Positions 55,275-57,309 of a stretch of DNA of 64,000 bases are shown one piece after another. The DNA comes from Parcubacteria group bacterium LiPW_41. GTDB taxonomy: Bacteria; Patescibacteriota; Minisyncoccia; UBA6257; GWB1-50-10. The translations under genes were made by a program, and so were the position numbers. Each line of letters begins with the position of its first letter. The stretch's first letter is position 1. The stretch is from positions 22,545 to 86,544 of the forward strand of contig VMEM01000004.1 in NCBI GenBank assembly GCA_007375535.1, given 5' to 3'. The notes below the pieces were generated by a model that saw only the letters and a list, made by a program, of their open reading frames with translations, ran no database searches and was not told where the DNA came from.

Positions 55275-55715
55275 TCATTGTAAATCATTCATTGTTTTGT
55301 ATGCAGCTTCGAATTCGTGATCTAACCCAAGAGATGCGAGATTTTTTATGTAGAGTATTGCGGCATCAAAACCAATTACTATTCTTCTTGATATGCCAAC
55401 AATCATTGGACTGACAAATCCAATTTCTTTATCTAGACAAAGAATGGTGAGTTTGTCATTTGCGTTTGCGTGTGTGGTTTCTATGGTTGTGCCGGTATCG
55501 CCATGTGGTTTTTTAACATACGTTAAGGTGCAATCGCATTGTTCTACGCCGCCAAGATCTCCCGAGACGAATACGGCTATACATCCTTGTTTCGTATCGA
55601 AACGAGGATCAAAAAAATGCACCTCAGGAATTTTTTCTTTAATATAGTCTCTCCAATCGGAATAGTCTTCATATTTATCAAACGGACCAGCGAGATAAAT
55701 AGAAATGGGATTCAT
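55275..55715 (-). CDS. nucleoside 2-deoxyribosyltransferase-like protein
   Basis: N-terminal IYLAGPF motif characteristic of the nucleoside deoxyribosyltransferase/Rcl fold. Confidence 0.45.
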   Translation of the reverse strand: MNPISIYLAGPFDKYEDYSDWRDYIKEKIPEVHFFDPRFDTKQGCIAVFVSGDLGGVEQCDCTLTYVKKPHGDTGTTIETTHANANDKLTILCLDKEIGFVSPMIVGISRRIVIGFDAAILYIKNLASLGLDHEFEAAYKTMNDLQ

Positions 55716-55964: not shown

Positions 55965-55998
55965 AAGCGAGGAATAAATCCTCACTTTTTGTTTTTTG
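55965..55998. terminator. bidirectional terminator hairpin next to tRNA-Lys
   Basis: aaaagcgaggaataaatcctcactttttgtttttt. Confidence 0.5.
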
Positions 55999-56071
55999 TG
56001 CCCCCACTAGGATTCGAACCTAGGACCGTTTGCTTAAGAGGCAACTGCTCTACCAGCTGAGCTATAGGGGC
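55999..56071 (-). tRNA. tRNA-Lys (anticodon CUU)
   Basis: reverse complement GCCCCTA-TA-GCTC-AGCTGGTA-GAGC-A-GTTGC-CTCTTAA-GCAAA-CGGTC-CTAGG-TTCGAAT-CCTAG-TGGGGGC-A folds as a cloverleaf; CCA not encoded. Confidence 0.75.
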
Positions 56072-56201
56072 TTATCACTATTTCAGGTTTTCTTAAGTAC
56101 GGAGTTTACTATACAAAAAATTATATTTTTTATCAATGTTGCATCTTGTACTGTTGTTGGTACATACTAAGAAAGTTCATTTAAAACAAAGAGAGGTTTC
56201 C

Positions 56202-56579
56202 GTGATTAATTTTGAAGAGATACGCGATCGTATTTTCAGGCGTTCGAAGGGAGATACGCAAGATTCAATTGAGAGGGGGGAGTTGCGCGAAAGAGTTGTT
56301 TCCTGTGTGCTTCAGAAAATGAAGGATAATAAACAAATATTGGATTTTGTAAAAACTCCTAAGTATGGTCCTGCAGATCTTATCGATGGCATAGACTTTT
56401 ATGTCATTATCATGAAGCTTGAACGAGTTGTTATACCAATTCAGGTTACTGGTTATCGTTTTGTAGAAGAACATAAGAGAAAACACCCACTTATTGATGT
56501 GGTTGCAGTGCCAGACGAAGAAGAAAAAAGAGAAGAGGTTACGCGTAGCCAAATTGAACAAATTATTCAAAAATTCTGA
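56202..56579 (+). CDS. hypothetical protein
   Basis: GTG 56202 preceded by gagagg at -11..-6; 126 aa, no recognisable motif; track start 56136 has no RBS. Confidence 0.35.
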   Translation: MINFEEIRDRIFRRSKGDTQDSIERGELRERVVSCVLQKMKDNKQILDFVKTPKYGPADLIDGIDFYVIIMKLERVVIPIQVTGYRFVEEHKRKHPLIDVVAVPDEEEKREEVTRSQIEQIIQKF

Positions 56580-56683
56580 GCGCTTTGATGATCTTTACAT
56601 CAGGCGCTTTTTTGTTACAATTGCTAATGTTCCTTACAGAGAACAATATTCCTCGGTAGCTCAACGGTAGAGCGGCGCGCTGT

Positions 56684-57228
56684 GAACATGTGAGTCCATT
56701 CCATGGTATAATACACTGTGTTATGCCAGAAAAAAGGACTTATGCCGACAGGGCTGAATATATAAAACAGGCAGTCACTAAGAGAAGAAGAAAACTCAAA
56801 GAGATGCTTGTTGAATATAAAGGTGGAAAATGTGTTGTTTGCAAATATAAGAAGACTTCTTGGGCGTTAGATTTACACCATATTGATCCGATAAAAAAGG
56901 ATTTTAATATGTCTGTGCGTGGTCTCACGCGATCTTGGGAAAGATTAAAACAAGAGGCGGATAAGTGTGTTCTTCTTTGTGCAAATTGTCATAGGGAGAT
57001 TCATGCCGGCATTACGCAGCTTCCGAAAGCAATTTCGGTTGAAAAACGAAGTGAATTCGGGGAAACCCAAAAAGGGCAATCCCGAGCCAAGCCTCTAAAA
57101 AAGAGGAAGGTGTAGAGACTATCTCGAAAGAGAGTACTGTTTCATATTTATTTATGAAATGGGAAGCGCTTCGCATCCCTCAGGGATGATGATATAGTCC
57201 ATCCTTTATGGAAACATAGAGATAAATG
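56684..57228 (+). mobile_element. intron-like insertion in tRNA anticodon loop (most consistent with a group I intron) carrying an HNH homing-endonuclease ORF
   Basis: 545 nt between tRNA halves; 5' exon ends with U, insertion ends with G; internal ORF with HNH motif; structured 3' tail (ggaagcgcttcgcatccc / cagggatgatgatatagtccatcc). Confidence 0.5.
56723..57115 (+). CDS. HNH endonuclease (intron-encoded homing endonuclease candidate)
   Basis: CVVCKY....LDLHHIDP.........CANCHREIH is the canonical HNH zinc-finger/catalytic His-Asn-His core; basic C-terminal tail. Confidence 0.75.
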   Translation: MPEKRTYADRAEYIKQAVTKRRRKLKEMLVEYKGGKCVVCKYKKTSWALDLHHIDPIKKDFNMSVRGLTRSWERLKQEADKCVLLCANCHREIHAGITQLPKAISVEKRSEFGETQKGQSRAKPLKKRKV

Positions 57229-57276
57229 TAACGCGATGGTTGTAGGTTCGAATCCTACCCGAGGAGCAAAAAATAA

Positions 57277-57309
57277 AAACGGCGGATTTATTCCGTTGTT
57301 TTTATTTTC
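57277..57309 (+). terminator. intrinsic terminator after the split tRNA
   Basis: aaaacggcggatttattccgttgtttttatttt. Confidence 0.5.

Follow-up and report, generated by a model that had tools for sequence, protein, structure and literature searches.

A tRNA-Asn gene of a Parcubacteria chromosome interrupted by a group I intron that carries an HNH endonuclease gene

Introduction

Two halves of a tRNA gene that lie 545 nucleotides (nt) apart raise the question of whether the gene is broken or is interrupted by an intron that can be removed, and of what the intervening DNA encodes. Such a locus is found at positions 56650-57266 of a 64,000-nt stretch of DNA from Parcubacteria group bacterium LiPW_41 (contig VMEM01000004.1, positions 22,545 to 86,544). 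This whole stretch is referred to as the window; coordinates are those of the window and features are on the plus strand unless stated otherwise. The locus is very probably a chromosomal tRNA-Asn(GUU) gene interrupted between tRNA positions 35 and 36 by a mobile, self-splicing group I intron of subgroup IA, which carries an HNH endonuclease cassette. An initial annotation of the window had proposed a tRNA split by an intron with an HNH open reading frame (ORF), and this interpretation is supported in every part by the analysis described here. Its statement that such introns are already on record in lineages of the candidate phyla radiation (CPR) is borne out by Nakagawa et al. (mSystems 2026, PMC13011429). 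The window element is a further member of a described kind and is ordinary for its lineage. Three features of the family appear to be unreported: an extended -10 motif with a hairpin that buries the AUG of the endonuclease gene, free-standing HNH genes beside tRNA-Asn genes, and decaying HNH copies.

Results

Anatomy of the split gene

The 5′ exon (56650-56683) contains the 5′ strand of the acceptor stem, the D arm, the 5′ strand of the anticodon stem and residues C32, U33, G34 and U35. The 3′ exon (57229-57266) resumes with U36, A37 and A38 and continues through the 3′ strand of the anticodon stem, the variable loop, the T arm and the 3′ strand of the acceptor stem to the discriminator G. Inspection of the sequence confirms the two halves that the initial annotation had placed here, a 34-nt 5′ half ending in CUGU and a 38-nt 3′ half starting with UAA. 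ARAGORN, when run with its intron search, returns tRNA-Asn(gtt) with a 545-nt intron and identical boundaries. The asparagine identity, the anticodon GUU and the split in the anticodon loop after U35 were all correctly read from the sequence; in standard tRNA numbering, the insertion point is located between U35 and U36. The discriminator G also fits the asparagine identity. Splicing in silico gives an RNA that folds as a canonical cloverleaf, with the pairing noted before in the acceptor stem (7 base pairs, bp) and the T stem (5 bp). One small correction concerns the top of the anticodon stem, where G27 and A43 are mismatched. The spliced 72-mer is identical at 60/72 positions (83%) to the intron-less tRNA-Asn(GUU) genes of two related loci, and CCA is not encoded. 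The joined-exon (intron-less) site reads GCGCGCTGT followed directly by TAACGCGA.

The host is a Parcubacteria metagenome-assembled genome (MAG), and the protein encoded in the intron is 100% identical to an HNH protein named from Parcubacteria group bacterium LiPW_41. Neighbouring genes in the window encode ClpB, FtsA, FtsZ, HisRS and a class II ribonucleotide reductase, and the locus is therefore chromosomal.

The split gene is easily overlooked. In its default mode, ARAGORN does not report it and makes a single call, tRNA-Lys at 55998-56071; the intron option is required. The Rfam tRNA model does not report the split gene either, and gives a partial match to the 3′ exon. As standard tools miss the gene, the genome would seem to be without tRNA-Asn. 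Intron-bearing tRNAs missed in this way distort estimates of CPR genome completeness, a point already made by Nakagawa et al. (PMC13011429). The silence of both programs would also suit a dead locus, in which the insertion broke the tRNA-Asn gene, the intron no longer splices and another tRNA-Asn copy serves the cell; such a copy could lie beyond the 64 kb in view. The conservation of the locus and the state of its ribozyme, described below, bear on this possibility.

Relatives were collected by scanning one representative genome for each species. The HNH protein has a relative in at least 554 of these genomes, and the best 80 loci (L001-L080), almost all from Patescibacteria MAGs, were analysed in detail. 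In all 74 fetched loci with readable boundaries, the insertion is in tRNA-Asn at 35/36. The exon and intron ends are the same throughout, with CUGU before the intron, G as its last nucleotide and UAA after it, in 75/75 parsed loci (the window counted in). Because identical boundaries recur in this manner, the split-gene layout cannot be attributed to chance. ARAGORN places an intron-containing tRNA around nearly all of the best 80 loci, and Rfam identifies group I introns in all sampled intron-bearing loci and a plain tRNA in two intron-less ones.

The tRNAs of about half of L001-L080 are labelled tRNA-Thr(UGU) by ARAGORN, with the intron at 33/34, and a few are labelled His or Ser. These mislabelled genes have the CUGU, G and UAA boundaries and are Asn(GUU) genes interrupted at 35/36. 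The Thr(UGU) label is known to result from a 2-nt boundary error for the same tRNA-Asn (PMC13011429).

The group I ribozyme core

The intron (56684-57228, 545 nt, subgroup IA type) was delimited with ARAGORN and assigned with Rfam and covariation. The initial annotation had suspected a group I intron from its ends, as the insertion starts after a U and ends in G; U56683 indeed forms a wobble pair with the guide sequence, and the last intron nucleotide, omega-G (57228), is G in 75/75 parsed loci. The Rfam model Intron_gpI (RF00028) matches 56950-57221 with 84.8 bits (gathering score 50, E = 3.7e-20). Its alignment displays P3, P4-P6, P8 and P9 together with the conserved J8/7-P7 sequence GAUAUAGUC. 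With respect to the model, the intron has 43 additional nt between P7 and P3′, which form two hairpins, P7.1 and P7.2. The location of these hairpins identifies the intron as subgroup IA type. The start of the Rfam match was rejected as the start of the core; the first 65 nt or so of the match (56950-57015) lie inside the ORF and are aligned to the first helices of the model with non-canonical pairs. The core starts at about 57015, because ORF-less relatives have the guide sequence 6-9 nt past the splice site and because P2 covaries at 57023-57038.

The P2-P9 fold was evaluated with a MAFFT alignment of 43 homologous cores, which was built blind to structure from cores of similar lengths anchored at the guide sequence. 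It replaced a first MAFFT alignment of the last 235 nt of each intron, which extended to 609 columns and was too gappy. Standard pairs occupy 90.8% of the cells of the final alignment, as compared to 34-47% after a shift of the 3′ partners by 1-3 columns. Changes on both sides are seen in 43 of the 59 pairs, and none of 500 shuffles reached the observed pairing values. A full P1-P9 group I architecture can thus be drawn with covariation for an element whose assignment the initial annotation had made dependent on such a fold.

P2 is the hairpin CCGAAA-GCAA-UUUCGG (57023-57038), in which 97% of cells pair and all six pairs show compensatory changes. P3 (57047-57053 with 57167-57173) has 7 bp, with 94% of cells paired and compensatory changes in 4 pairs. 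The P4-P5-P6-P6a domain (57057-57111) consists of P4 (57057-57062 with 57080-57085), P5 (57066-57068 with 57074-57076), P6 (57086-57088 with 57109-57111) and P6a (57092-57096 with 57102-57106); it is seen in the Rfam alignment, and across the 43 cores 86-96% of its cells pair, every helix showing compensatory changes. P7, formed by GACUA (57117-57121) and UAGUC (57195-57199), is invariant and fully paired in 43/43 cores. In group I introns, this helix contains the guanosine-binding site. P7.1 (57122-57133) and P7.2 (57140-57159) are paired in 94% and 91% of cells, respectively, both with compensatory changes. The P8 hairpin (57174-57188) has 6 bp, 5 of them with compensatory changes, and the P9 hairpin (57204-57221), closed by a GAAA loop, has 7 bp, 6 of them with compensatory changes.

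A dead locus would not be expected to look like this. The window preserves all core helices along with the U·G wobble, the invariant P7 and omega-G, and the layout is kept with compensatory changes over dozens of species, which requires selection on the fold. At 149/197 aligned positions (76%), the core is identical to that of the tRNA-Asn intron of GCA_016700035.1, which self-splices in vitro with precise 35/36 junctions (PMC13011429). Intron-containing and intron-less tRNA genes of the same anticodon rarely occur in one genome, and for both introns tested in that study, the interrupted tRNA gene is the single copy in the genome (PMC13011429). Loss of splicing at this locus is therefore highly improbable, and the window intron is predicted, by homology to the tested relative, to splice.

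P1 and the placement of the ORF

The 5′ strand of P1 (56679-56684) is made up of the exon residues GCUGU and G1 of the intron. It is complementary to the internal guide sequence (IGS) C-GCAGC at 57015-57020, which forms the 3′ strand. The resulting P1 has 6 bp and includes the wobble pair at the splice site, U56683·G57016. The GCAGC guide is found in 74/75 parsed loci. Intron nucleotide 1 and the nucleotide preceding the guide (intron+1:IGS-1) form a standard pair in 70/74 loci, and the position covaries with six pair types (G-C in 56 loci, A-U in 7, C-G in 3, U·G in 2, G·U in 1 and U-A in 1). A second GCAG, at about 56771, is another potential partner of the exon; this alternative guide is unconserved among the loci and was rejected.

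In introns with the ORF, the guide is located 299-355 nt downstream of the splice site, and in six relatives whose introns are short (192-257 nt), it follows that site by 6-9 nt. The ORF therefore forms an insertion within the P1 loop, and in the window the guide pairing spans a loop of about 330 nt.

The HNH endonuclease

The ORF in the intron (56723-57115) encodes 130 amino acids (aa), and the HNH core that the initial annotation had recognised in it corresponds to aa 37-95 (56831-57007). The assignment is based on PHROG, Pfam, invariant residues and AlphaFold, with the best match to PHROG 2255 (phrog_2255, E = 1.1e-30), and a database search with the protein returned 2895 homologues. The sequence has the His-His/Asn/His motif of the beta-beta-alpha metal finger, with two CxxC zinc-binding pairs. 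Residues C37, C40, H52, H53, C82, C86, N88 and H90 are invariant in 37 aligned homologues, with C89 and H94 nearly so. The AlphaFold model contains the strand-strand-helix elements, and the predicted local distance difference test (pLDDT) score is 86-95 for aa 11-100 and <50 for aa 105-130; aa 1-104 constitute the folded part of the protein. The leading matches of the model in Foldseek, all weak, are HNH-type nucleases. The window copy has its full length and all of the residues that are invariant in the family, and the ORF is an intact HNH endonuclease gene. Its location in the intron, together with the free-standing copies beside tRNA-Asn genes described below, suggests that the enzyme would act in homing by site-specific cleavage of the intron-less allele.

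The last 30-35 or so codons of the ORF (57008-57115) overlie the guide sequence, P2, P3, P4-P6 and J6/7. When translated, the guide sequence, P2, P3, P4 and P6 yield the tail GITQLP..VEKRGEFGET..GQSRAKP, and the UAG of the conserved J6/7 sequence GUAGAGACUA serves as stop codon. Many homologues end at 104-106 aa, and the free-standing copies are without the GITQLP... tail. Given these shorter and tail-less relatives and the low pLDDT, by which the tail is predicted to be disordered, it is read-through of the ribozyme rather than a protein domain, and its apparent conservation as protein mirrors the conservation of the RNA.

Putative control of endonuclease expression

A promoter-like site at the 5′ end of the intron (56683-56712) reads TGAACA-18-TATAAT, with an extended -10 element TGGTATAAT at 56704-56712; it scores 10/12 plus TG in a consensus scan. 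A motif of the TG.TA.A.T type precedes the ATG in 30 of the 45 homologues with a recognised start, and the spacing to the ATG is 9-10 nt in 28 of these 30. An 11-bp hairpin (56704-56728; RNAfold -11.7 kcal/mol, z = -4.0) has the nucleotides of TGGTATAAT in its 5′ arm, and its 3′ arm holds the AUG of the ORF and its Pro codon. In the minimum-energy fold, the AUG is fully paired in 39/45 homologues, as compared to 25% of shuffles. Of the cells in the hairpin arms, 93% pair, and double changes occur in only 3 cells because both arms are nearly invariant. A structural role of the hairpin is plausible. No Shine-Dalgarno site is visible before the HNH ORF. The free-standing HNH copies keep the GGTATA... 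motif and the hairpin ahead of the start codon.

Most likely, the endonuclease cassette has an extended -10 promoter of its own that would yield a nearly leaderless mRNA. Masking of the start in longer transcripts would matter because the ORF runs through P1′-P6, and ribosomes on the precursor would unfold the ribozyme. Two simpler readings were considered: that TGGTATAAT is not a promoter and serves only as a hairpin arm, with the HNH protein being translated from the pre-tRNA or the excised intron, or that the promoter alone matters and the hairpin is incidental. The first finds some support in relatives in which the hairpin persists with a weak -10 element (L015, GGCAUAAA; L079, GGCAUGC) and in L075, where the arms change jointly from GG to CC and from CC to GG. 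The overall covariation of the hairpin is weak, and either feature by itself could explain the conservation. A promoter is, however, favoured by the spacing of 9-10 nt in 28 of 30 cases, which fits a transcription start site 2-3 nt ahead of the AUG, by the retention of the motif before free-standing copies, outside any pre-tRNA, and by the 10/12 match with its extended TG. We consider these simpler readings rather unlikely.

Free-standing and decaying relatives

A free-standing HNH gene lies beside the tRNA-Asn gene in 9/80 loci. In seven of these, the tRNA-Asn gene is interrupted by an intron (192-260 nt) that has the same core and no ORF; the HNH gene is located immediately upstream in L020 (1501-2141), L027 (1426-2147), L045 (1501-2155) and L062 (1483-2161), downstream in L037 (1050-1797) and L046 (1080-1797), and in divergent orientation in L072 (574-1357). 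In L032 (1306-1797) and L033 (1501-1969), the free-standing gene is adjacent to an intron-less tRNA-Asn(GUU) gene, where Rfam finds a plain tRNA and no group I match. Three states of endonuclease-intron association are thus present in one phylum, the gene being free beside an intron-less tRNA-Asn, free beside a tRNA-Asn with an ORF-less intron or, as in the window, inside the P1 loop.

Intron-borne copies in decay are also present. In about 12 of the 69 long introns, the HNH gene is decayed and the ribozyme core is intact. L010, L014, L026, L050, L052 and L067 (about 1430-1600) share a change of the ATG to ATA followed by an in-frame stop; further decayed copies are found in L002, L003, L042, L065, L069 and L070, and the types of decay overall include a truncated or missing ORF.

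This decay raises the question of whether the HNH protein of the window still drives homing. The intron could splice and carry the endonuclease as a fixed passenger on the way to decay, or the protein could be kept for ribozyme folding or self-regulation. In addition to the lost starts, stops and truncations among the relatives, the life-cycle model of homing endonucleases holds that an intron fixed in a population leaves no empty sites for invasion. Most tRNA introns are without endonuclease genes, and their horizontal transfer is limited (PMC13011429). The window copy itself, however, is full length, retains the invariant residues and has a folded part predicted with high confidence. The family is very large and includes free-standing genes beside intron-less tRNA-Asn, which argues for ongoing mobility. 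HNH proteins are not known to act as group I maturases. An intron that splices and has ceased to home is therefore unlikely, and a mobile intron is the preferred reading.

Some hosts in the scan are labelled Burkholderiales, Pseudomonadales, Heliobacteriaceae, Methylomirabilota, Blastocatellales or Omnitrophica. The intron start of L014, which has a Burkholderiales label, is almost identical to those of L010 and L026, which have Nomurabacteria labels, and mis-binning therefore seems likelier than transfer.

Phage proteins that are 51-55% identical over part of the HNH protein are free-standing, located in phage tRNA clusters and abut tRNA genes. The examples inspected are from Yersinia phage fHe-Yen9-04 (L081, 757-1552) and Shigella phage Henu11 (L082, 967-1518). 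Their 3′ ends overlap the next tRNA gene (tRNA-Ser and tRNA-Ile/Xle) by a few nucleotides. Both records were considered as candidates for genes borne in a tRNA intron and rejected, as both are free-standing. The association of the HNH family with tRNA genes seems to extend more widely.

Flanking features

A promoter-like site for the pre-tRNA, TTTACA-16-TACAAT with a TG upstream, is located at 56594-56621, 28 nt ahead of the tRNA start (consensus scan, 10/12); as a match to the consensus, it is a putative promoter. Downstream of the tRNA, an A/U-rich hairpin at 57271-57307 (RNAfold -19.7 kcal/mol, z = -5.2) may act as a terminator; the consensus terminator scan does not call it. Upstream of the split gene, the minus strand carries an ORF similar to nucleoside 2-deoxyribosyltransferases (55275-55715), with Pfam scores under the cut-off, and the tRNA-Lys(CUU) gene (55998-56071). 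A 147-aa ORF at 56136-56579 is without a family match.

Discussion

Strength of the assignment

Several observations weigh against a mobile, self-splicing intron with an HNH cassette that has its own expression control. Splicing, cleavage and homing are assigned to this locus by homology, and the genome is seen over 64 kb, with a second tRNA-Asn gene possible elsewhere. The Pfam HNH model (PF01844) narrowly misses the protein, with 21.1 bits against a cut-off of 21.4. Foldseek finds no significant match in the PDB (best E-value 0.14), and among solved structures a sequence search retrieves the HNH domain of a group II intron maturase as its sole, marginal match; for both reasons, no close solved relative can be named. 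The candidate P10, in which UUA (57012-57014) may pair with UAA of the 3′ exon, is weak, having only 3 bp, an offset of one nucleotide and no conservation among the loci. The internal promoter is a match to a consensus, and promoters of Patescibacteria are poorly characterised. The hairpin arms could be complementary simply because the -10 box and the Met-Pro start are each conserved. With these points taken into account, our confidence in the intron, its subgroup and its HNH cassette remains high.

Proposed mechanism

The pre-tRNA would be transcribed as a single RNA, possibly from the site at 56594-56621. The ribozyme core (about 57015-57228) would fold into P2-P9, and the guide at 57015-57020 would reach back over the loop of about 330 nt to pair with 56679-56684 and form P1. 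Exogenous guanosine bound in P7 would then cleave after U56683. G57228 would take the same site, and ligation of the exons would release a 72-nt tRNA-Asn, which RNase P, 3′ processing and later addition of CCA would complete. Homing would follow from cleavage of intron-less tRNA-Asn alleles by the HNH enzyme near the anticodon, with the intron being copied in during repair. For its expression, the extended -10 promoter in the cassette would give a nearly leaderless HNH mRNA. In read-through pre-tRNA, the AUG would be buried in the 11-bp hairpin and ribosomes would be kept off P1′-P6.

Implications

The comparative data suggest that the occurrence of tRNA-Asn introns with an HNH gene in Patescibacteria extends far beyond the four published cases, that the endonuclease gene comes with expression control of its own, and that all stages of its association with the intron coexist. 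We propose tentatively, as a serious possibility, that the endonuclease gene is an autonomous cassette, consisting of the extended -10 promoter, the near-leaderless start, the AUG-masking hairpin and the ORF, which occurs in Patescibacteria in the three states described above. If so, these chromosomes would hold a natural series of steps in the assembly or disassembly of a mobile group I intron, and a cellular lineage would have T4-like control of an intron endonuclease. The spread of tRNA introns by their endonucleases would also be much commoner in the phylum than the published four suggest. The lineage would be usable as a natural system for the formation and decay of mobile introns outside phages.

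Comparison with known systems

The tFind software of Williams (2020, bioRxiv 10.1101/2020.01.27.920355) raised the number of intron-interrupted tRNA classes from 4 to 21, and Nakagawa et al. credit the tRNA-Asn intron type 'Asn.4Ug' to this work (PMC13011429). The closest known elements are the subgroup IA introns that Nakagawa et al. describe at position 35/36 of Patescibacteria tRNA-Asn, four of which carry HNH genes and for which precise self-splicing was demonstrated in vitro (PMC13011429). The window intron agrees with them in phylum, tRNA, insertion site, U-1, omega-G, the IA core with P7.1 and P7.2, and the HNH family (PF01844). It differs in its source, a draft MAG outside their 95 complete genomes. 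Their paper makes no mention of where the ORF lies in the intron, of the overlap between ORF and ribozyme, of an internal promoter or hairpin, or of free-standing copies. Against their four HNH-bearing tRNA-Asn introns, the scan of species-representative genomes finds at least 554 related HNH loci.

Among bacterial tRNA introns, 81% belong to subgroup IC, whereas those of Patescibacteria are nearly all IA (PMC13011429). The cyanobacterial introns of tRNA-Leu(UAA) (34/35) and tRNA-fMet (33/34, with a PD-(D/E)XK endonuclease) differ from the present one in tRNA, position and endonuclease family, and the IC subgroup that predominates among bacterial tRNA introns contrasts with the IA type found here.

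The endonuclease genes I-TevI (td), I-TevII (nrdD) and I-TevIII (nrdB; HNH) of phage T4 are similar in that they lie in peripheral loops of IA-type introns. In T4, the intron endonucleases have their own internal promoter, and the hairpin in which it lies keeps the translation start masked in read-through RNA (PMC2988022). The hosts of the T4 introns are phage protein-coding genes, and splicing there needs protection from translation of the host message for this reason; the host in the window is a cellular tRNA gene. The T4 genes use late or middle phage promoters and hide a Shine-Dalgarno site, whereas in the window the AUG itself is buried and the regulation is a prediction.

The free-standing HNH genes beside tRNA-Asn genes with an ORF-less intron or none resemble the arrangements of collaborative homing, known from the phage seg and mob genes. 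Under the collaborative-homing model, in which a free-standing endonuclease gene recombines with an ORF-less intron, such arrangements are the predicted forerunners of a mobile intron (PMC2988022). Published examples come from phages, whereas those described here are in cellular chromosomes, and the window itself holds the composite form, with the endonuclease gene inside the intron.

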